From Clostridia bacterium (GTDB lineage: Bacteria; Bacillota; Clostridia; Peptostreptococcales; Anaerovoracaceae), in the NCBI GenBank assembly GCA_024403215.1, contig JAKSSJ010000001.1, positions 1 through 59,498 of the forward strand: a stretch of DNA of 59,498 nucleotides, written 5' to 3'. This document shows positions 2,691 through 58,315 of this stretch, one piece after another. A program made the translations under genes and the position numbers. Within the stretch, counting starts at the first letter, position 1, and each line of letters opens with the position of its first letter. The notes beneath the pieces are model-generated. The model ran no database searches. It worked only from the letters and a program-made list of their open reading frames with translations, and was not told where the DNA came from.

Positions 2691-2721
2691 GTTGTCAAAA
2701 GGGTCTGACCCCATTGACAAC
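2691..2721. repeat. Palindromic repeat family copy B (inverted relative to copy A)
   Basis: GTTGTCAAAAGGGTCTGACCCCATTGACAAC. Its reverse complement matches copy A apart from one base; it overlaps the stop codon of the M42 gene by 1 nt. Confidence 0.9.
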
Positions 2722-3707
2722 TATTTTGTAGCGGCAAAGGCGGCCATGAGGGCGCCGGCATCTTCTATATCTGACAGCTGGCAAACCTCACCTGGACTAT
2801 GGATATATCTTGTTGCAACGGAAATTCCGCCCGTCCAAACACCAGATCCGCTGACTCTCATCTCTCCAGCATCTGTTCCACCAGCTCTAAGCACATCAAG
2901 CTGCGCCTTAATTTTCTTTCTCTTTGCAAGAGCCATAATCTTTTCTACCATTTCTGGGTTACAAATTACGCTCTTGTCCATAACCTTAACGGCAGCTCCA
3001 CCTCCAAGCACAGAGGTTCCAACGTGATTTGCGTTTGGAGTATCGTCAACAAGGGTTGTATCTGCAACAATTGCATACTCTGGCTCAATTCCAAAAGCAG
3101 CAGGCTTTGCGCCTCTTAATCCAAGCTCTTCTTGGACAGTGAAAACAAAATATGTATCGTAGTAAACTTTTTTAATTTGCTGTATTGCAAGTATTGCAGC
3201 AACGCAGCCTGCTCTATTATCAAGATAAGGAGAAGCTACTCTATTTTCGCCAAGCATAAGTGTTGGCGTGTTATAAACAGCCATGTCACCAACGCTTACC
3301 ATAGCAGCTGCTTCTTTTTCATCCTTTGCTCCAATGTCTATAAACATTGAATCTATTTCTCTTTTTTTAGCTCCACCGTTTTCGTAAATAGTTCCAACAA
3401 CTCCATTTGCAAATCTAACAGGTGTTGCAAGAACATCGTCAGGATGAATTCCCCCAACCATACCTATTCTAAGTAGGCCATCCTTTTCTATGTGAGTAAC
3501 AATAAAACCAATGCTATCCATATGGGCGGCAATCATAAGCTTTGGACCGTTTCCTTTTTTGTGAACGATGAGATTCCCCATTACATCTGTTTTAATCTCA
3601 TCTGCATAAGGTCTTACAAGTCTTTTAATCTTAGCAGCAATTTCTTTTTCGTTGCCAGATGGGCCAAAGCACTTATTTAGTTCTTTTAATATTTCAAATG
3701 TAGTCAT
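2721..3707 (-). CDS. M42 family metallopeptidase (FrvX/CelM/glutamyl-aminopeptidase-like), paralogue 3
   Basis: 328 aa with ...GPSGNEKEI...AAHMDSIGFIV...DNRAGC...QEELGLRGA... motifs of M42 peptidases. Confidence 0.85.
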   Translation of the reverse strand: MTTFEILKELNKCFGPSGNEKEIAAKIKRLVRPYADEIKTDVMGNLIVHKKGNGPKLMIAAHMDSIGFIVTHIEKDGLLRIGMVGGIHPDDVLATPVRFANGVVGTIYENGGAKKREIDSMFIDIGAKDEKEAAAMVSVGDMAVYNTPTLMLGENRVASPYLDNRAGCVAAILAIQQIKKVYYDTYFVFTVQEELGLRGAKPAAFGIEPEYAIVADTTLVDDTPNANHVGTSVLGGGAAVKVMDKSVICNPEMVEKIMALAKRKKIKAQLDVLRAGGTDAGEMRVSGSGVWTGGISVATRYIHSPGEVCQLSDIEDAGALMAAFAATK

Positions 3708-9993: not shown

Positions 9994-11667
9994 TTGAAAA
10001 TCTTATCTGACAAGGCGCTAGATGCTCAAGTCAGGAAGGAAGTTGCAAGTACGCTTCTCCTTACCCTTATCTGCGCTCTTTGGCATGTTATTACTGCGTT
10101 TGCTTTAAACAAAAGTGGGCTCTATTTTCTTGGGATGCCTGCCTGGTTTTCAGTGAGCGTTCTTGGAACGATTCTGATAGCTATTATTGGGGTCGTATTT
10201 TTGTGCAAAAAAGTATTTGTGGACTTTGAATATCCTAGCGAGGCCGCCGGCAGCATTGCCGGCGCCGGCGAAGCCGGCCGCGCCGAAGGCGCGAGGGGCC
10301 TCGCGGCCGAAAGATCCTTCTTTATTGGCGGCCGAGACATGGGCGGCCTAGTCCTTGCCATGACAACAATGGCTACTTACACATCTGTAAGCTCTTTTAT
10401 TTCTGGTCCTGGGGCTGCCGGCCTTACTTATGGATATGCCCAGGCCTGGATTGCAGCCGTTCAGGTGCCTGTAACCTTCCTTGTCTTGGGGGTATTAGGT
10501 AATAGTTTTGCAAATATCGCTAGAAAAACAGGTGCCGTTACTGTATCTGGGTACCTTAAGGCAAGATATAAGTCCGATGCCCTAGTAATTGTGACAAGTC
10601 TTCTAATGGTTGCCTTCTTTATAGCACAAATGATTGCCCAGTTTCAGGGTGGCGCAACACTAATCGAATCAGTTTTTGGACTTGAATATAAGAAGGCACT
10701 ACTAGTATTTGGGCTTATCGTCATCCTATACACATCATTTGGTGGTTTTAAGGCTGTCGCTTTAACTGATGCCGTCCAGGGCCTCATTATGTGCTTTGGA
10801 ACCATAATTTTCGTTGTTTTGGTTCTAAAAAATGGTGGTGGCCTTGAAGCTATAGACCTAAGACTTGGTGAAAATCTGCCAAATATTTATGATAATCTTA
10901 CCGCAATATACCGCCCAGGCACACTTTTGTCCTACTGGGTATTGGTGGGCTTTGGAACCGTCGGTCTTCCACAAACTGCAGTAAGATGTATGGGCTTTAA
11001 GAATACCCAAAGCTTAAAGCGCGCCATGCTCATTGGCGTTGTCTGCTGCTCACTTGTAATGGTTGGAATGCACACGGCCGGGGTTTGGGCCGGCGCGCTC
11101 ATAAATATAGGAGGCCAGGGCGCCAGCGGCGCCGCAGGCGCCGGAAGTGCAGCCCTCCCAAGCTCTGACTACTTTATTCCTTATATCATCCAAAAGATTA
11201 TGCCTGGCGCCCTGGGCTACATATTTTTATTGGCGCCGGCCGCAGCCGTCATGTCAACAGCAGACTCACTCCTTCTTTTGGCATCAGCTGCAATAGTAAA
11301 AGATTTATACAAAACCTACATTGTTAAAGATAATCCAGTAAAGCTCGAAAGATATAATAAAAACGTAAAGAAAATAACAAGCCTTAGCACCTTGGTCTTT
11401 GGAATCATAGTTGTGCTTCTTGCAACAGATCCTCCAAGCATAATTTTCTTCCTAAACCTTTTTGCTATGGGTGGTCTTGAGTGTAGCTTTTTCTGGCCTT
11501 TGGTTGGAGGAGTTTTTACAAAAAATAAAAACGCCCGCTCGGCTATCGCTGCCAGCATTGGCGGTGTTGCAATATATATCTTCTGTTACTATAATGTAAA
11601 GGTACTTGGTATTAATGCTGTAGTATGGGGGCTTCTTGGAAGCGGCCTTCTATATTTTATTTTCTAA
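9994..11667 (+). CDS. sodium:solute symporter (PanF-like) with a YhdT/DUF997-like two-TM N-terminal extension
   Basis: TTG start with a GGAGG RBS. Residues from about 100 onward (GGRDMGGLVLAMTTMATYTSVSSFISGPGAAG...) resemble SSS/PanF. The first approximately 85 aa form a separate 2-TM module joined by an Ala/Gly linker. Confidence 0.7.
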   Translation: MKILSDKALDAQVRKEVASTLLLTLICALWHVITAFALNKSGLYFLGMPAWFSVSVLGTILIAIIGVVFLCKKVFVDFEYPSEAAGSIAGAGEAGRAEGARGLAAERSFFIGGRDMGGLVLAMTTMATYTSVSSFISGPGAAGLTYGYAQAWIAAVQVPVTFLVLGVLGNSFANIARKTGAVTVSGYLKARYKSDALVIVTSLLMVAFFIAQMIAQFQGGATLIESVFGLEYKKALLVFGLIVILYTSFGGFKAVALTDAVQGLIMCFGTIIFVVLVLKNGGGLEAIDLRLGENLPNIYDNLTAIYRPGTLLSYWVLVGFGTVGLPQTAVRCMGFKNTQSLKRAMLIGVVCCSLVMVGMHTAGVWAGALINIGGQGASGAAGAGSAALPSSDYFIPYIIQKIMPGALGYIFLLAPAAAVMSTADSLLLLASAAIVKDLYKTYIVKDNPVKLERYNKNVKKITSLSTLVFGIIVVLLATDPPSIIFFLNLFAMGGLECSFFWPLVGGVFTKNKNARSAIAASIGGVAIYIFCYYNVKVLGINAVVWGLLGSGLLYFIF

Positions 11668-31282: not shown

Positions 31283-31918
31283 ATGGAAAATATTTACAAA
31301 TTACTAACTGAATATATTTTAGACTGGAATGAAAAGATAAATGTTACTGCAATAAAGGATCCTGAAGAATTTTATGAAAAGAATATAAAGGATTCGCTTG
31401 CAATAACAAATAGACCAGAATATATTGCTGCAAAGAAGGTTTTAGACCTTGGAACAGGCGGCGGCTTTCCTGGCTTACCCCTTGCAATTTCAAGTCCAGA
31501 GAAAGATTTTATTTTGATGGATGCTGTGGGAAAGAAGCTAAAGGTTATAGATGATGTAGCCTTAAAGCTTGGTTTAAAAAACGTTACCACGGTGCATTCT
31601 AGAGCAGAGGATTATGTTTCACGTGAAACATTTGACCTTGTTGTTTCAAGGGCAGTGGCAAACATGTCTACCCTTTCTGAATACTGTCTTCCTTTTGTAA
31701 AGCTTGGCGGATACTTTATTGCTTACAAAACAGAAGATGCAAAAGAGGAAATAGCAGCTGCCTCAAATGCTATTAAGCTTCTTGGGGGTGAGCTGGCAGA
31801 GATTGCGGACAATGGAGAAGGCTCTAATGGGCACATATTTGTAATAATAAAAAAGGTCTCCCCTTCCCCTTCTAAATATCCGCGGAAGGCTGGAATTCCA
31901 AGCAAACAACCGCTATAA
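31283..31918 (+). CDS. rsmG: 16S rRNA (guanine527-N7)-methyltransferase RsmG
   Basis: ...VLDLGTGGGFPGLPLAI...VVSRAVA...; 211 aa. Confidence 0.93.
   Translation: MENIYKLLTEYILDWNEKINVTAIKDPEEFYEKNIKDSLAITNRPEYIAAKKVLDLGTGGGFPGLPLAISSPEKDFILMDAVGKKLKVIDDVALKLGLKNVTTVHSRAEDYVSRETFDLVVSRAVANMSTLSEYCLPFVKLGGYFIAYKTEDAKEEIAAASNAIKLLGGELAEIADNGEGSNGHIFVIIKKVSPSPSKYPRKAGIPSKQPL
31615..31630. other. parS site 1 (inside rsmG)
   Basis: Exact TGTTTCACGTGAAACA, the perfect palindromic form of the Firmicute parS consensus. Confidence 0.85.
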
Positions 31919-31927
31919 CACAAAGGA

Positions 31928-31943
31928 TGTTTCACGTGAAACA
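31928..31943. other. parS site 2, embedded in the rsmG terminator hairpin
   Basis: Exact TGTTTCACGTGAAACA within GGATGTTTCACGTGAAACATCC, followed by TTTTTCTTTT. Confidence 0.85.
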
Positions 31944-31962
31944 TCCTTTTTCTTTTGATTCT

Positions 31963-32402
31963 TTTTCAGGGAGAAAGCGTACTAATACTTCTTCGGGAGG
32001 CAGGTCCTCGCGCTGGGCTGAATTGCAATCCTGGAAACGTCAGCACGCTCTTATTTTCAGGGAGAAAGCGTACTAATACTTCTTCGGGAGGCAGGTCCTC
32101 GCACGCTGTTAAACTAACGGCTCTGCTCGCTGCTCTCGTCGAAAGGGCTCCTTCGCGACGCTCGCATCGCCGAGTTTAAATACGCTTTGCTGTGGAGGCT
32201 CCCTCATAAGCATTAGCACGCTTTCCCCCTTGAAAAATGAGGCATAAGTGATATATGGCTTTCCGAACGACTTCGCGTAGTGACCGTTTTGCAACACTGC
32301 GAGGCGCCCGTAGCGAGACGTCCGCCTTCCGGCGCGAGCAGGGCGCCAAGCAGATGTTGCACAGGGCACGCAGCGGCAAGTGAGGAAGGTCATGTATCAC
32401 TT
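31963..32402. repeat. GC-rich structured non-coding repeat cluster
   Basis: Exact 49-nt direct repeat at 31963-32011 and 32054-32102, a diverged inverted copy at about 32194-32238, and a nested rod-like hairpin at 32246-32402. Confidence 0.85.
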
Positions 32403-32437
32403 CTGCCTAAATTAAATTTAAGAGGAAAGCGGTTGAT

Positions 32438-32453
32438 TGTTTCACGTGAAACA
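32438..32453. other. parS site 3 (upstream of parA)
   Basis: Exact TGTTTCACGTGAAACA, 34 nt upstream of the parA ATG. Confidence 0.85.
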
Positions 32454-32486
32454 TATATAATGAAGGTACGATTAAAGGAGATCACT

Positions 32487-33263
32487 ATGGGAAAAGCAAT
32501 AGCAATCTTTAACCAAAAAGGCGGTGTAGGCAAAACAACAACAAACATTAACCTCGCAGCCTGCCTTGCACTCAAAGGTAAGAAGGTCTTAGTAATAGAT
32601 ATTGACCCTCAAGGTAATACAACCTCAGGTCTTGGAATTCCAAAGAAAGACCTTGGTAACACAAGCTATGATTTAATGATTGAAGAGGACATAAATCCCC
32701 TCTCCACTATCTATCATACAAGTGTAAGAAATATGGATATAATTCCAGCAAGCGTAGATCTTGCCGGAGCAGAAATAGAACTTGTAGAAATTGATGGCAG
32801 AGAAAGAAGACTGGAGAAAGCCTTAAATGCAATAAGGCCACTTTATGATTACGTCTTTATTGATTGTCCACCAAGTCTTTCGCTTTTAACAATCAACGCT
32901 CTTACTGCGGTAGATTCAGTACTGATTCCTATTCAGTGCGAGTTCTATGCACTTGAAGGAGTAACTCAGCTTGTTAGCACAATTGAACTTGTAAGAAAGA
33001 GCTTTAACCCTTCAATTAAAATTCAGGGCGTAATTCTTTCCATGTTTGATGGCAGAGCAAACCTATCCATTCAGGTTGCGGAAGAAGTTAAAAAATTCTT
33101 TGGAAGCAAGCTTTATGCTACAGTTATTCCAAGAAACGTTAGACTTGCAGAAGCACCAAGCTATGGTCTTCCAATTACAAGTTATGATCCACATTCTAAA
33201 GGCGCAAGAGCCTATATGGCATTTGCAGATGAGTTCCTTGAGGCGGAGGTAAATAATGGCTAA
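32487..33263 (+). CDS. parA: ParA/Soj family chromosome partitioning ATPase
   Basis: MGKAIAIFNQKGGVGKTTT... preceded by RBS AAAGGAG. The track ORF start (32280) adds an implausible GC-rich extension. Confidence 0.93.
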   Translation: MGKAIAIFNQKGGVGKTTTNINLAACLALKGKKVLVIDIDPQGNTTSGLGIPKKDLGNTSYDLMIEEDINPLSTIYHTSVRNMDIIPASVDLAGAEIELVEIDGRERRLEKALNAIRPLYDYVFIDCPPSLSLLTINALTAVDSVLIPIQCEFYALEGVTQLVSTIELVRKSFNPSIKIQGVILSMFDGRANLSIQVAEEVKKFFGSKLYATVIPRNVRLAEAPSYGLPITSYDPHSKGARAYMAFADEFLEAEVNNG

Positions 33264-50546: not shown

Positions 50547-51023
50547 ATGGCAGACGAAATTCTTTTAACACAACAAGGCTACGACGACATAGTCAAAGAA
50601 CATGAGTATTTAGTTACAGTTCGTCGTGCAGAGGTATCCGAACACTTAAAGGAAGCAAAATCCTACGGAGACCTTTCTGAAAATGCAGAATACGATGCTG
50701 CAAAGGATGAGCAGGCAAACCTCGAAGAGAGAATCGCTCGTCTTGAGTACATGATGAGAAACGCAAGGGTTGTAAGCGAAGATGAGCTTACAGGCGAACA
50801 CGTTAACCTCGGACTTACAGTAAAGATTAGAGACATTGATACAAAAGAAAAGTATACTTACACCATTGTAGGTATTACAGACGCAGATCCATTTGAAGGC
50901 AAGATTTCTAATGAATCTCCTGTTGGCAAGGCTCTTCTCGGAAAGAGAAAGGGAGAAAAGGTTGAAGTTGTAATGCCAGATAACAAGATAGCAATTTATC
51001 AGATTATGGAGATCACAAAGTAA
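50547..51023 (+). CDS. greA: transcription elongation factor GreA
   Basis: ...EAKSYGDLSENAEYDAAKDEQ... is the canonical GreA coiled-coil motif; 158 aa. Confidence 0.95.
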   Translation: MADEILLTQQGYDDIVKEHEYLVTVRRAEVSEHLKEAKSYGDLSENAEYDAAKDEQANLEERIARLEYMMRNARVVSEDELTGEHVNLGLTVKIRDIDTKEKYTYTIVGITDADPFEGKISNESPVGKALLGKRKGEKVEVVMPDNKIAIYQIMEITK

Positions 51024-53155
51024 TGGGCGATAATCAAAAAATGCAAAATAACGCTCAGCCTCAGGTTTCTGAGTCAGAGCAGTTTCAGATTAGAAAAGAA
51101 AAGCTTCTTGCGCTTCAGGCTGCAGGAAAGGATCCTTATGTAATCACTAAGTTTGATCAGAACAACTTTTCAAAGAATATTAAAGAAGAGTTTGCTTCTT
51201 TAGAACCAGAAGAGCACACAGGCAAGGAATTTAATCTTGCTGGAAGACTCATGAGCAAGCGCGTTATGGGTAAGGCTTCTTTTGCTGGACTTAGAGACGA
51301 CAGAGGAGATATTCAGCTTTACGTTACAAGAGATAATCTTGGAGAAGAAGACTACGCTGATTTTAAGAAATTAGACATCGGTGATGTAGTTGGAGTAACA
51401 GGCGAAGTATTTAAGACAAAGACAGGTGAAATCTCTGTTAGTGTTAAGAAGCTCTCGCTTCTTTCAAAGTGCCTACATCCACTTCCAGAAAAGTTCCACG
51501 GCCTTACAGACCTAGAGCAACGCTACAGAAACAGAAGCGTGGACCTCATTGTAAATCCAGAGGTTAAGGAAACGTTTAAAAAGCGTAGCGCTATTATCAA
51601 TGAGATAAGAGCTTATCTTAATGAGAGAGATTATCTTGAAGTTGAAACACCAATTTTAAATCCTATTGAAATTGGTGCATCTGCAAGACCTTTCGTAACT
51701 CACCACAATACTTTAGATATTGATATGTTCCTTCGTATTGAAACGGAGCTTTATCTAAAAAGACTCATTGTTGGTGGTATTGACAGAGTATATGAAATTG
51801 GTCGTATCTTCAGAAACGAAGGTATGGATAGAAAGCATAATCCAGAGTTTACTTCAATTGAACTTTATCAGGCCTACACTGATTTTGAGGGCATGATGAA
51901 TTTAGTTGAGGAGCTATTCAAAAGGCTCGCAGATAAGGTTTGCGGAACAAGACAGATTCCTTACGGAGATCTTACAATTGACTTTGACAATTGGACAAGA
52001 ATGACTATGAAGGAAGCTGTAAAGAAATATTCCGGCGTTGATTACGATGATTGGAAGACAGACGAGGATGCTATTAAGTCTGCCAAAGAGCATAAAGTTG
52101 AACTTCCAGAAGTTAAGACAAAGGGAAATATTCTTGCAGAATTCTTTGATGCGTTTGTTGAAGACAAGCTTATTCAGCCAACATTTATCTACGATTATCC
52201 AGTAGATATTTCTCCATTGGCAAAGAGAAAGCCAACAGATCCAGAATTTACAGAGCGTTTTGAGTTCTTTATTAATGCAACAGAGTTTGGTAATGCATTC
52301 TCCGAGCTTAATAACCCTCTTGATCAAAGAGAAAGATTTGAAAGACAATTAAGAGAGCGCCTCGCAGTAGAGCCAGATTCAAGATGTGCTTTAGACGAGC
52401 CTTTCCTTGTTGCAATAGAAACTGCTATGCCTTGCACAGGTGGTCTTGGTATTGGAATTGACAGGCTCGTAATGCTTCTCACAAACAACCAGAACATTCA
52501 AGACGTACTGCTCTTCCCTACAATGAAGCCAGAAGGCGTTCAGGTAAAGGCTGCTCCTGTTAAAAAGGGTGAAGCACTTGTTTCGCCACTTACAAGGGAA
52601 CAGGCTTTAGAGCTTTTAAAGAAATATAACCAGGATCCATTCCACATTCGCCATGCACTTACAGTTGAAGGCGTAATGAGATGGTATGCAAAAGAACTTG
52701 GTCTTGCAGAGGAAGAAGAATTCTGGGGTCAGGTAGGTCTTCTGCATGATATTGATTTTGAAATGTGGCCAACAGAGCACTGCAAGAAGGCGCCAGAGCT
52801 TCTCAAAGAGGGCGGCGCAAGTGAAGAGATGATTCATGCTGTATGTGCTCATGGATTTGGTCTTTGCTCAGATGTAGAGCCAACACTTCTTATGGAAAAG
52901 GTTCTCTTTGCAGCAGATGAACTTACAGGACTTATTTGGTCTTATGCGTTGATGCGTCCTGAAAAGTCTTGCGAAGGAATGGAGCTTAAGAGTTTAAAGA
53001 AGAAATTCAAGGACAAGAAATTTGCAGCAGGCTGCAGCAGAGATGTAATTGCAGACGGCGCAGCAAAGCTTGGCTGGGAACTCGATGAACTCCTCGAAAA
53101 AACCATTTCCGCAATGCAATCCTGCGAAAAATTCGTAGAAGAAAGTTGCCACTAA
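51023..53155 (+). CDS. lysS: lysine--tRNA ligase (class II) fused to a C-terminal HD-domain phosphohydrolase-like module
   Basis: Residues 1 to about 500 are a typical LysRS (..YRNRSVDLIVNP.., ..IGRIFRNEG.., ..GIGIDRLVMLL..LFPTMKPE). The extra approximately 200 aa contain ..HIRHALTVEGVMR...VGLLHDIDFE...AVCAHG.. (the H..HD..H pattern). Confidence 0.85.
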   Translation: MGDNQKMQNNAQPQVSESEQFQIRKEKLLALQAAGKDPYVITKFDQNNFSKNIKEEFASLEPEEHTGKEFNLAGRLMSKRVMGKASFAGLRDDRGDIQLYVTRDNLGEEDYADFKKLDIGDVVGVTGEVFKTKTGEISVSVKKLSLLSKCLHPLPEKFHGLTDLEQRYRNRSVDLIVNPEVKETFKKRSAIINEIRAYLNERDYLEVETPILNPIEIGASARPFVTHHNTLDIDMFLRIETELYLKRLIVGGIDRVYEIGRIFRNEGMDRKHNPEFTSIELYQAYTDFEGMMNLVEELFKRLADKVCGTRQIPYGDLTIDFDNWTRMTMKEAVKKYSGVDYDDWKTDEDAIKSAKEHKVELPEVKTKGNILAEFFDAFVEDKLIQPTFIYDYPVDISPLAKRKPTDPEFTERFEFFINATEFGNAFSELNNPLDQRERFERQLRERLAVEPDSRCALDEPFLVAIETAMPCTGGLGIGIDRLVMLLTNNQNIQDVLLFPTMKPEGVQVKAAPVKKGEALVSPLTREQALELLKKYNQDPFHIRHALTVEGVMRWYAKELGLAEEEEFWGQVGLLHDIDFEMWPTEHCKKAPELLKEGGASEEMIHAVCAHGFGLCSDVEPTLLMEKVLFAADELTGLIWSYALMRPEKSCEGMELKSLKKKFKDKKFAAGCSRDVIADGAAKLGWELDELLEKTISAMQSCEKFVEESCH

Positions 53156-53156
53156 A

Positions 53157-53198
53157 GTTGTCAACGAGGTTGTCAATGGGGTCAGACCCCATTGACAA
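53157..53198. repeat. Palindromic repeat family copy C (with an extra half-site)
   Basis: GTTGTCAACGAG plus GTTGTCAATGGGGTCAGACCCCATTGACAA, starting 2 nt after the lysS stop and followed by GTTTT. Confidence 0.9.
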
Positions 53199-55892: not shown

Positions 55893-56100
55893 TGAGCCCT
55901 CTTTCTTCTTTTAATTATATTAATCATATTCTATTCTTTTCTATGGTTAACGTAAAGTGATATGTGGTATAATTAAGCTGCCTTGAAGCAGGCTGATTAA
56001 TTTTCCTACACTTGCTATATGGGATTTCGGACGTCTATTTTAGCATTATGTCAGGCCTCATTTTTCAGTGGAAGACAGAAGCTAGAAAGCAGAAAACCCA

Positions 56101-57430: not shown

Positions 57431-57461
57431 GTTGTCAACGGGGTCTGACCCCGTTGACAAC
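57431..57461. repeat. Palindromic repeat family copy D
   Basis: GTTGTCAACGGGGTCTGACCCCGTTGACAAC: perfect 15-bp arms around a single T. Confidence 0.9.
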
Positions 57462-58284: not shown

Positions 58285-58315
58285 GTTGTCAATGGGGTCT
58301 GACCCCGTTGACAAC
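58285..58315. repeat. Palindromic repeat family copy E
   Basis: GTTGTCAATGGGGTCTGACCCCGTTGACAAC, 3 nt downstream of the yqeY stop. Confidence 0.9.

Follow-up and report, generated by a model that had tools for sequence, protein, structure and literature searches.

A GC-rich gap between rsmG and parA in uncultured Clostridia is probably a cluster of mobile palindromic repeats

The gap between rsmG and parA in the 59,498-nt stretch of Clostridia DNA analyzed here (hereafter the window) is probably a nested mosaic cluster of non-autonomous palindromic repeats of the MITE/REPIN/ERIC kind, reshuffled by hairpin-driven recombination and belonging to an undescribed family of uncultured Clostridia. 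Selfish palindromic DNA rather than an RNA gene is the most likely identity of the cluster, and we infer that it has no dedicated host function. Two families of rod-like quasi-palindromes make up the cluster: D-type rods of ~170–180 nt (rod D and A2-C-A′) and E rods of ~150–170 nt, represented here by the truncated arm B only. Both are now defined by alignments and covariance models within an uncultured Clostridia clade, together with a family of short palindromes. The evidence consists of polymorphism in presence, absence, truncation and inversion, paralogues at unrelated loci, an insertion at the center of a palindrome, and conservation of pairing without strand bias.

A 568-bp gap separates the end of rsmG (31918) from the start of parA (32487). 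As the original prediction stated, the gap has no credible ORF: the overlapping ORFs are all short and rich in Arg, Ala and Cys, and gene callers predicted no gene in the same gap on public contigs. The prediction was also right that this DNA is GC-rich against its surroundings (0.52–0.56 GC in 200-nt windows, with a peak of 0.67, vs 0.39 for the whole window) and highly structured, the whole gap folding with z = -6.5 on the + strand and -6.4 on the - strand (folding energies by strand, -198 vs -190 kcal/mol). Missing from that description were perfect parS palindromes (TGTTTCACGTGAAACAT, an exact 17-mer repeat) that flank the cluster on both sides, at 31928–31944 and 32438–32454. The left parS is the core of the rsmG terminator hairpin and the right one forms the spacer of the parA promoter, as it also does in conspecific contig L001. 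This promoter was the only promoter-like site in 31700–32700, with none inside the cluster in either orientation, and the same holds for L001. The cluster occupies exactly the untranscribed space from terminator to promoter. From left to right, the region comprises the following features:

31922–31949, + strand: rsmG intrinsic-terminator hairpin (terminator-like; 12-bp stem, T-rich tail), which bounds the cluster on the left
31963–32011, + strand: A1, first copy of the exact 49-nt repeat, 100% identical to 32054–32102 and present in the window's allele only
32012–32053, + strand: B, truncated 5′ arm of an E-family rod, 40/42 nt identical to L003 2894–2933
32054–32241, - strand: A2-C-A′, second, diverged D-type rod, with arms A2 (32054–32102) and A′ (32199–32241) and interior C (32103–32198)
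32235–32413, + strand: rod D, a 179-nt quasi-palindrome identified by inverted repeat I5 and by folding, with a 66% GC apex at 32278–32371
32412–32431, + strand: right-flank box TTAAATTTAAGAGGAAAGCG, repeat family D2, matching the initial 20 nt of the 49-mer region at 70%
32433–32461, + strand: parA promoter, a promoter-like TTGATT-17-TATAAT with 10/12 positions matched, which bounds the cluster on the right

The exact 49-nt direct repeat that had been described at 31963–32011 and 32054–32102 is real, and its first copy, A1, duplicates one arm of the D-like rod A2-C-A′; the 49-mer occurs only once on conspecific contig L001. The segment of L003 that matches B falls within a complete E rod (L003 2771–2938). 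A2-C-A′ is defined by inverted repeats I1 and I2 and by a D-family profile match at 32184–32057(-) (E = 5e-7). This rod lies in the opposite orientation to rod D and is a seed of alignment A5, in which its pairs are kept. The diverged inverted copy of the original prediction corresponds to arm A′ at 32199–32241, which is 77–79% complementary, and its nested rod-like hairpin corresponds to rod D, with arms 32235–32264 / 32384–32413 plus nested inner stems, and with homologues in L146, L150 and L144. The C(UUCG)G hairpin that it pointed out is present in the 49-mer, whereas the diverged copy (CTTATGAGGGAG) does not retain it, and in the global fold the tetraloop stretch of the 49-mer pairs instead with the inverted copy. 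By inspection of the junctions, the right-flank box holds half of a quasi-palindrome that adjoins rod D in simple alleles; we consider it a candidate breakpoint or crossover region. The GCCTCATTTTTCA box at 56055–56067, which had been put forward as a related copy, is a 13-nt match at chance level (E = 0.36).

The cluster varies extensively among conspecific strains. Across nine conspecific contigs with identical or near-identical RsmG and ParA we found four allele versions, in which modules are present, absent or truncated and the gap measures 301, 458, 510 or 568 bp:

L004, L005 and L137: rod D alone
L003: rod D and a full E rod
L001: rod D, A″-C-A and an E arm
Window: block inverted, with an extra 49-mer

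Rod D is found on all nine contigs, on eight of them in the orientation opposite to that in the window. The inverted block arrangement occurs on one contig only among conspecifics, that of the window, and the same orientation is seen in species L146; the locus thus offers a natural example of a strain-level inversion adjoining chromosomal parS sites and the parAB promoter. We rejected the two parS palindromes as the recombination sites behind the inversion, as the 17–24-nt spacers adjacent to parS are unmoved in both orientations. At the other extreme is the closest relative, sister species L142 (82% RsmG), in which two parS sites lie 48 bp apart, separated by an AT-rich spacer and no GC-rich DNA. 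L148 and L149 are likewise empty between rsmG and parA. In the sister species and another lineage without the cluster, the promoter is still there, together with two or three parS sites. None of the relatives has a gene in this position, contrary to the expectation that a noc-like gene would normally sit there.

Other relatives carry D-type and E rods in either orientation, alone or together, and at other loci too. D-type or E rods lie in or adjoin the rsmG–parA gap in 5 of the 8 sampled lineages; in four species the same parS has a D-type rod next to it. L152 has E without D (84 bits with a model built without the L152 copy) and L150 has D without E, so that an obligatory bipartite unit of E and D was rejected. 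In L144, a composite of E and F is found twice within 17 kb, at 83% identity over 304 nt, with the E rods 91% identical over 132 nt. The niche between terminator and promoter is also used at the M42–rpsF locus and in the L144 jag–mnmE gap, which carry the same elements though they have no parS. Local cores are 70–88% identical between species vs 42–47% at four-fold sites, and whole-rod identity between species is 49–62%. Copy number seems low (about three rods across 59 kb; none across 12–14 kb of two relatives), for loci that were all sampled around rsmG and are almost entirely origin-proximal.

Within the window, a second locus captures how such DNA enters a palindrome. Two features define it:

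2465–2705, no strand assigned: 241-bp insertion with perfect 15-bp terminal inverted repeats GACCCTTTTGACAAC / GTTGTCAAAAGGGTC, at 2465–2479 and 2691–2705
2590–2677, + strand: compact D-family rod, 81% identical to both ends of rod D (profile E = 4e-8)

The insertion is located exactly at the center of a 29-bp palindrome, P. Conspecific alleles of the locus are empty with a single P (L133, L135), filled (window, L136) or reduced to a deletion scar (L134), providing a natural example of palindrome-center insertion with all of these states. P is 29–31 nt long, has 11-bp inverted arms around a 9-bp center, and is present in five copies in 59 kb. Insertion at its center regenerates two hybrid palindromes (hybrid site P* = TTGTCAAAAGGGTC-N-GACCCTTTTGACAA), and a P..P doublet spans 2450–2720; the 11-nt repeat GTTGTCAATGG consists of a P arm and an internal half-site. 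Comparison of filled and empty alleles places entry at P's central base; the flanks are not duplicated, so that there is no target-site duplication at this insertion. Inspection of rods D and E likewise revealed no flanking direct repeats. The cargo comprises a GC-rich rod at 2500–2597, not detectably E or D in profile searches, and the compact D rod at 2590–2677, which lacks the 94-nt apex of rod D. The insertion has a fold z of -12.6. The core of rod D, GAACGACTTCGCG..GCGGCAAGTGA, recurs here inside a 25–27-bp stem, as originally reported. The interpretation of this stem as different but equally complementary, and so as a sign of covariation, does not stand: it is ~80% identical to the outer stem of rod D, and the two rods are therefore diverged copies of one element.

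A fold conserved through compensatory changes, as initially proposed, is nevertheless evident across the wider family. Paired cells make up 86.5% in the D superfamily, vs 64% when shuffled and 34–44% when slid, and double (compensatory) changes affect 28 of 35 D pairs and 12 of 31 E pairs. Stem mismatches are symmetric (25 G.T vs 28 A.C), and between the L144 E copies a 9-nt indel is mirrored in both arms. Pairing without strand bias together with a mirrored indel is the outcome expected of arm-to-arm copying in a DNA palindrome; true covariation exists in this family, but a DNA palindrome can yield it without selection on RNA. The rods are thus a natural example in which compensatory-looking stem evolution need not mean RNA function. 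They occur in both orientations relative to flanking transcription, with no preference. Some unpaired, asymmetric motifs are also conserved, namely CACGCTCYCGCTA in the four seed E copies and CACGCTCTCGCTTA in L152. We rejected the idea that locus-specific outer stems arose by inverted target duplication, given that these stems, in the two L144 E rods as in rod D and its compact relative, are homologous but diverged, and show compensatory substitutions as well as the mirrored 9-nt indel.

Database searches, like the original prediction, matched the region to no known RNA family. A scan of the window and six related loci with Rfam 15 gave zero matches at the gathering threshold and nothing credible at E <= 10 (best sub-threshold E = 0.6–5.6). 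BLAST against 72,556 plasmids returned no match at E <= 0.01, and scans of viral contigs with four motifs gave zero matches. The 17-nt core TTCYGAACGACTTCGCG searched against genome contigs, and the 20-nt core GCTTTCYGAACGACTTCGCG against metagenome contigs, found only chance matches in GC-rich genomes or conserved Paenibacillus genes, and the partner motif GCGGCAAGTGA was absent near these matches. A Pfam search of the 30 ORFs of the 59-kb window detected no transposase, recombinase, invertase, integrase, relaxase, Rep or RAYT gene. In the literature on Clostridia and Firmicutes we found no specific described equivalent of these repeats.

We propose that the rods act as DNA-level quasi-palindromes that would settle where they are harmless, here between the rsmG terminator hairpin with the left parS and the parA promoter with the right parS, and that they would spread or be exchanged within and between related Clostridia genomes. 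Arm-to-arm template switching could maintain stem complementarity, hairpin-stimulated deletions could leave single arms, duplication of an arm could give rise to the 49-mer, and the whole block may invert. Mobilization would presumably occur in trans through an enzyme encoded elsewhere, for which the candidates are a hairpin-recognizing HUH/Y1 transposase of the kind that serves REPINs and a recombinase with crossover at the centers of palindromes. This activity is hypothetical, as the 59-kb window contains no transposase or recombinase gene; if found, the enzyme could represent a new hairpin-targeting activity. Also counting against mobility are the lack of target-site duplication at the rods and the apparently low copy number; in addition, the rod D shared by all nine contigs and the D-type rod beside the same parS in four species could reflect vertical retention under selection.

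Such retention would be expected if the rods were instead a host-useful DNA structure at the origin-proximal parS/ParABS region, whether a cruciform or protein-binding spacer, a parAB insulator or an invertible switch, that is selected and occasionally copied elsewhere. We consider this unlikely. The presence of rod D on 9/9 conspecific contigs and of D-type or E rods in or by the gap in 5/8 lineages speaks for it, as do pairing maintained over ~50% whole-rod divergence, inversion of the block both between strains and between species, and the position of the cluster next to the -35 box of the parS-containing parA promoter. However, the cluster is missing altogether from the closest sister species and from another lineage, both of which keep the parS sites and the promoter, the content varies among strains (E present, truncated or absent; A-C-A′ present or absent), and the same elements occur at jag–mnmE and M42–rpsF without parS; the parS association is moreover partly a sampling artefact, because every locus was taken around rsmG. 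As for a switch, there is no internal promoter to flip and no invertase gene nearby. Compared with fimS-type invertons, inspection of the breakpoints showed only weak quasi-palindromic similarity, with no internal promoter and no recombinase in the window. A smaller likelihood still attaches to a structured RNA, produced as an independent sRNA, as the leader of parA or by extension of the rsmG transcript at its 3′ end. The original prediction saw a hint of function at the RNA level in the cUUCGg hairpin of the 49-mer, to which can be added the very stable folds (z about -6.5 and -12.6), the strong covariation-type support for the stems, the conserved asymmetric unpaired motifs CACGCTCYCGCTA and CACGCTCTCGCTTA, and the precedent of MITE-derived sRNAs known in Coxiella (PMC5896051). 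Against it, the cluster contains no sigma-70-like promoter and lies downstream of an efficient-looking terminator, and even within one species the same rod points either way with respect to the flanking genes. Stems show no bias of G.U over A.C (25 vs 28), the two strands fold equally well, the diverged copy does not conserve the tetraloop, some strains have modules truncated or missing, and Rfam has no match even at E = 10. Explaining this RNA-like island as palindromic DNA should prevent its annotation as an sRNA or riboswitch.

Two further explanations are very improbable. One is a functional element of single-stranded DNA, such as a single-strand origin or priming site from an integrated rolling-circle plasmid or conjugative element. 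Long GC-rich hairpins would suit such an element, and TAGCGA, which we take to be the CS-6 motif of ssoA-type origins, is found close to the rod D apex and, read on the complementary strand, in two E rods (L003, L146). Yet a 6-mer match is weak, orientation is inconsistent with respect to the direction of replication, no similarity was found to the 72,556 plasmids or to viral contigs, and no Rep, relaxase or integrase gene is nearby; of the RSB, CS-6 and Rep gene of an ssoA-type origin, only the TAGCGA hexamer was seen, with no plasmid match at E <= 0.01. The other, that the cluster is a one-off local duplication, junk DNA or an assembly artefact, is largely refuted. It would account for an exact 49-nt duplicate and inverted arrangement confined to the window contig, and several public contigs do end at the parS palindrome. 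But rods with conserved structure recur in independent assemblies from several projects and several species, the junctions in the window consist of unique k-mers that an assembler could not have invented, and species L146 has the window's orientation. The contig breaks coincide with a 28–32-nt perfect palindrome, about equal to the assumed word size of the assembler, which explains them and led us to reject within-sample switching as their cause. The original prediction named random local duplication as a refutation should the copies be the only ones, which does not apply because further loci, and no fewer than four related species, carry related rods.

Read as mobile palindromic repeats, the rods can be placed among several known systems. 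REP, BIME and REPIN sequences of Proteobacteria are GC-rich extragenic palindromes located just after genes and mobilized by RAYT, a Y1 HUH transposase. The rods share with them mosaics of modules in alternating orientation (BIME-like), long hairpins with compensatory arms (REPIN-like) and the lack of target-site duplication. Palindrome P resembles REP and the P..P doublet at 2450–2720 resembles REPIN; together with 28/35 D pairs and 12/31 E pairs showing double changes, the doublet matches the co-varying inverted hairpin doublets of REPINs. They differ in that the rods are 150–180 nt long vs 20–40 nt for REPs, neither rods nor P have a GTAG head, the host is a low-GC Clostridia, the window encodes no RAYT (30 ORFs), and the copy number is apparently low here. 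ERIC/IRU elements of Enterobacteria are 127-bp imperfect palindromes in transcribed regions, for which we know of no target-site duplication or transposase. Like the rods, they are long, intergenic, imperfect palindromes found in both orientations with patchy presence among strains and species, and they have short and long versions that differ by an internal indel, as do compact D and rod D. Unlike ERIC, to which they have no sequence similarity, the rods lie between terminator and promoter and are nested and clustered.

Pneumococcal BOX elements are modular, and resemble in this the A/B/C mosaic seen here. More broadly, bacterial MITEs (QMITE2, Neisseria Correia elements, pneumococcal RUP/BOX) share with the rods a small, non-coding, rod-folding form, terminal inverted repeats and variability among strains. 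The elements described here have terminal inverted repeats (15 bp in the 241-bp insertion and, in rods, inverted repeats over their full length), measure 90–240 bp with no credible ORF, occupy two loci each in the window and in 17 kb of L144, and have polymorphic alleles. The 241-bp element at 2465–2705, with its perfect 15-bp terminal inverted repeats and its empty site, also resembles them. Differences from MITEs are the absence of target-site duplication at the checkable insertion, the position at a palindrome center, the lack of a known parent IS, and a GC content far above that of the host genome. QMITE2 of Coxiella also exists in large and small versions and is found in intergenic or 3′ regions (PMC5896051).

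The crossover apparent at the center of P also recalls pdif and attC sites, as a lead only. In pdif modules, which are acted on by XerC/D, and in integron attC cassettes, cargo lies between palindromic recombination sites; here, too, cargo lies between short palindromic sites and is found in either orientation. This cargo, unlike theirs, contains no genes, no recombinase was identified, and P is unlike the dif or attC consensus. It is conceivable, if improbable, that rods and P together constitute an undescribed kind of mobile DNA, in which GC-rich hairpin cassettes integrate, excise and invert through crossing over precisely at the center of short host palindromes. Target sites would then be the terminator-like P and possibly the parS neighborhood, and the driver would be a hairpin- or palindrome-specific enzyme. 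Separately, we observed that a PanF fusion gene in the same genome contains in-frame GC-rich palindromic insertions. Crossover of the cassette type could have seeded these as well, as a Clostridia counterpart of the Rickettsia palindromic elements.

The rsmG-parA gap (568 bp, between rsmG of the GidB family at 31283-31918 and parA at 32487-33263) lies in the replication-origin region of a low-GC Clostridia genome (dnaA, dnaN, recF, gyrBA, rnpA-yidC-jag-mnmEG-rsmG-parAB). As predicted, it is GC-rich relative to its surroundings (0.52-0.56 in 200-nt windows, with a peak of 0.67, vs 0.39 window-wide) and holds no credible ORF, only short Arg/Ala/Cys-rich ones, and gene callers leave it blank on public contigs. 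Its folding energy is -198 and -190 kcal/mol on the two strands (z = -6.5 and -6.4 vs shuffles). The exact 49-nt direct repeat (31963-32011 and 32054-32102), its diverged inverted copy (32199-32241, 77-79% complementarity) and the rod-like hairpin (arms 32235-32264 and 32384-32413) were all confirmed; the proposed cUUCGg hairpin holds for the 49-nt repeat itself and is absent from the diverged copy. We found the cluster to be assembled, mosaic-like, from copies of two families of long hairpin, or rod, D and E, some copies whole and others truncated or duplicated; it is bracketed by two perfect parS palindromes, TGTTTCACGTGAAACAT:

31922-31949, directly after rsmG: terminator-like hairpin (12-bp stem and T-rich tail) with the left parS, 31928-31944, as its core
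31963-32011, A1: copy of the 49-mer, a duplicated arm
32012-32053, B: truncated arm of an E rod
32054-32241, A2-C-A': second, diverged D-type rod, oriented opposite to rod D (profile E = 5e-7)
32235-32413: rod D
32433-32461, ahead of parA: TTGATT-17-TATAAT, the sole promoter-like site of the region, with the right parS, 32438-32454, as its 17-nt spacer

With the terminator-like hairpin on the left and the promoter-like site on the right, the repeats fill exactly the terminator-to-promoter space, and no promoter-like site occurs inside the cluster in the window's orientation or the opposite one. A third perfect parS (31615-31631) lies inside the rsmG coding sequence, making three within 840 bp, and the placement of parS as the spacer of the parA promoter would imply ParB autoregulation.

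Conspecific contigs from several projects, found by exact-protein look-ups with RsmG and ParA and carrying identical or near-identical flanking genes, showed four forms of the gap:

301 bp (L004, L005, L137): rod D reversed right after the left spacer, then the last 15 nt of the 49-mer
458 bp (L003): rod D(-) and a complete rod E, with module B within the arms of E
510 bp (L001): rod D(-), an A''-C-A hairpin and B
568 bp (window): entire block inverted vs all eight other contigs reaching it, and one additional 49-mer

The parS-adjacent spacers are unmoved in every form, so the breakpoints are the block ends and not the parS sites. The inverted arrangement is found in the window contig alone; it has junctions of unique sequence and is oriented as in the related species L146. 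One assembly, GCA_024500545.1, holds the window's RsmG together with a second RsmG (P0016, 76% identical, on a 654-nt contig), and so is either a mixed bin or an assembly at metagenome level.

A search for RsmG homologues gave eight related lineages. None carries a noc-like gene in this gap, which leaves the original description of it as such a gene's usual place unsupported. Listed by RsmG identity to the window, the gaps or their surroundings contain:

L142 (82%, the closest): two parS 48 bp apart, without GC-rich DNA
L152 (77%): lone E(-), upstream of both parS, scoring 84 bits with a model built without L152
L146 (76%): E(+) then D rod(+), the window's order and orientation and the mirror image of L003
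L150 (76%): lone D(-) after the left parS
L147 (72%): different hairpins, D or E undetectable
L144 (69%): E and a D-like rod, F; the jag-mnmE gap holds the pair a second time
L148 and L149 (67%): gap empty

In L144 the two E+F pairs align over 304 nt at 83% identity, and their E rods over 132 nt at 91%; near-identity is seen in the cores of the rods, and the outer stems and spacer are much more diverged. The jag-mnmE gap that holds the second pair (L144 2975-3402) measures 428 bp, vs 48 bp in the window. Between species, element cores are 70-88% identical and whole rods 49-62%; at four-fold degenerate rsmG sites, identity of the window species to L144, L146, L150 and L152 is 42-47%, and to L142 59%. 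The GC-rich hairpins of L147 (5450-5690, e.g. GGCGCCGGAATTC..GAATTCCGCCGGC) fit neither of the two rod models, D or E, and may represent a further, third family. In L148 and in L149, a stretch of about 100 bp holds three parS sites.

Six D-type copies from four species aligned to a consensus rod of 35 pairs. Compensatory double changes occur at 28 of these and at 12 of 31 E pairs, and 86.5% of D cells are paired, vs 64% when shuffled (0/500 shuffles reach 86.5%) and 34-44% with slid partners; the double changes and excess pairing together indicate that the hairpins are real and maintained. The original prediction took the C(UUCG)G tetraloop as a hint of function at the RNA level. We consider a strand-specific RNA improbable, and the prediction is not supported here, because stem mismatches in 11 rods are symmetric (25 G.T vs 28 A.C), neither strand folds better than the other, both arms of the two L144 E copies show the same 9-nt indel in mirror image, and the same rods lie both ways round relative to flanking transcription, even inside one species. 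An Rfam search of the window and six related loci found nothing, in agreement with the earlier failure to place the cluster in any known RNA family. The pattern fits DNA quasi-palindromes, whose arms would be kept complementary by arm-to-arm copying, the template-switch process called 'quasipalindrome correction', or by a need for the hairpin in mobilisation.

Evidence for mobility comes from a second locus. The rod core GAACGACTTCGCG..GCGGCAAGTGA recurs, as predicted, in a compact D rod at 2590-2677, where its stem is not a different one as had been thought but a ~80% identical homologue of the outer stem of rod D; the supposedly related GCCTCATTTTTCA box at 56055 is a 13-mer at chance level (E = 0.36). 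Contigs with an identical M42 peptidase (gene 2721-3707, minus strand) carry three alleles of the M42-rpsF interval:

(i) empty (L133, L135): one 29-nt palindrome, P, TTGTCAACGGGGTC-T-GACCCCATTGACAA
(ii) scar (L134): a half-site, then the right-hand hybrid palindrome
(iii) filled (window, L136): 241-bp insert, 2465-2705, with perfect 15-bp terminal inverted repeats GACCCTTTTGACAAC and GTTGTCAAAAGGGTC

The insert, whose cargo is a GC-rich rod and the compact D rod, sits exactly at the central base of P and regenerates two hybrid palindromes, each with its outer half from P and its inner half from the element; comparison of filled and empty alleles showed no target-site duplication. Such alleles are the signature of a reciprocal exchange, or of breaking and rejoining, at the palindrome centre, and the scar of L134 is the product expected if allele (iii) underwent a deletion between its two GTTGTCAAYGR repeats. 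The P family (GTTGTCAAYGGGGTCWGACCCCRTTGACAAC; 29-31 nt, 11-bp inverted arms around a 9-bp centre) is REP-like or terminator-like, with five copies in 59 kb (2450-2479, 2691-2720, 53170-53198, 57431-57461 and 58285-58315), mostly just after genes, and none in 12-17 kb of each related species or in viral contigs. At 53154-53198 an additional half-site (GTTGTCAACGAG) immediately precedes P in the layout of the L134 scar, and by analogy may mark a lost insertion. The ORF at 51023-53155 (710 aa) is a class II Lys/Asp/Asn-type tRNA synthetase whose catalytic and anticodon domains reach to about residue 500, followed by a C-terminal extension of about 200 aa.

With REP/BIME/REPIN, ERIC and bacterial MITEs the cluster shares palindromes that are GC-rich and extragenic, form mosaic clusters, come in longer and shorter versions, have arms that co-vary and differ from strain to strain. 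Coxiella QMITE2, which occurs in a large and a small version within intergenic or 3' regions, is a documented parallel (PMC5896051). Nevertheless, none of these named families shares sequence similarity with the cluster; unlike REP/REPIN-RAYT it lacks a GTAG head, with no RAYT gene visible among the 30 window ORFs scanned, and unlike MITEs it shows no target-site duplication at the single insertion that could be tested for one, and it has no known parent IS. It is best filed in the general class of palindromic intergenic repeats, membership in a named family not being established.

From strain to strain, copies are present or absent, truncated, duplicated or inverted, paralogous rods occupy unrelated loci, one composite is inserted precisely at a palindrome centre, and pairing is kept without strand bias. 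We therefore think it probable, with moderate confidence, that the cluster consists of non-autonomous selfish palindromic elements, mobilised in trans and tolerated in the terminator-to-promoter space, where rods would persist because insertions there are harmless. The mobilising enzyme would be encoded elsewhere and be either an HUH/Y1 transposase that recognises hairpins or a recombinase that works on the centres of palindromes; the 30 window ORFs scanned include no gene for a transposase or recombinase. The 49-nt duplicate, single-arm remnants and block inversion may have arisen as side effects when hairpins stimulated slippage, template switching or recombination from centre to centre. The main rival, a DNA structure that is useful to the host and linked to the parS/parAB locus, would account for rod D never being absent within the species and for D or E rods at the gap in five of eight lineages, although locus sampling was centred on rsmG. 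It seems unlikely, since the sister species lacks the rods, content differs between strains and the same elements occur at loci without parS.

GC-rich DNA also lies within a gene elsewhere in the window. A DUF997-PanF (sodium/pantothenate symporter) fusion at 9994-11667 contains inserts at ~10245-10320 and ~11110-11160 (71-80% GC) that are made up of small palindromes (e.g. GCCGGC-GAA-GCCGGC and three GGCGCC) and encode Ala/Gly-rich loops. Homologues of 75-80% identity lack these loops, some having other inserts at the same two points, and by sequence the inserts look like in-frame GC-rich palindromic insertions.
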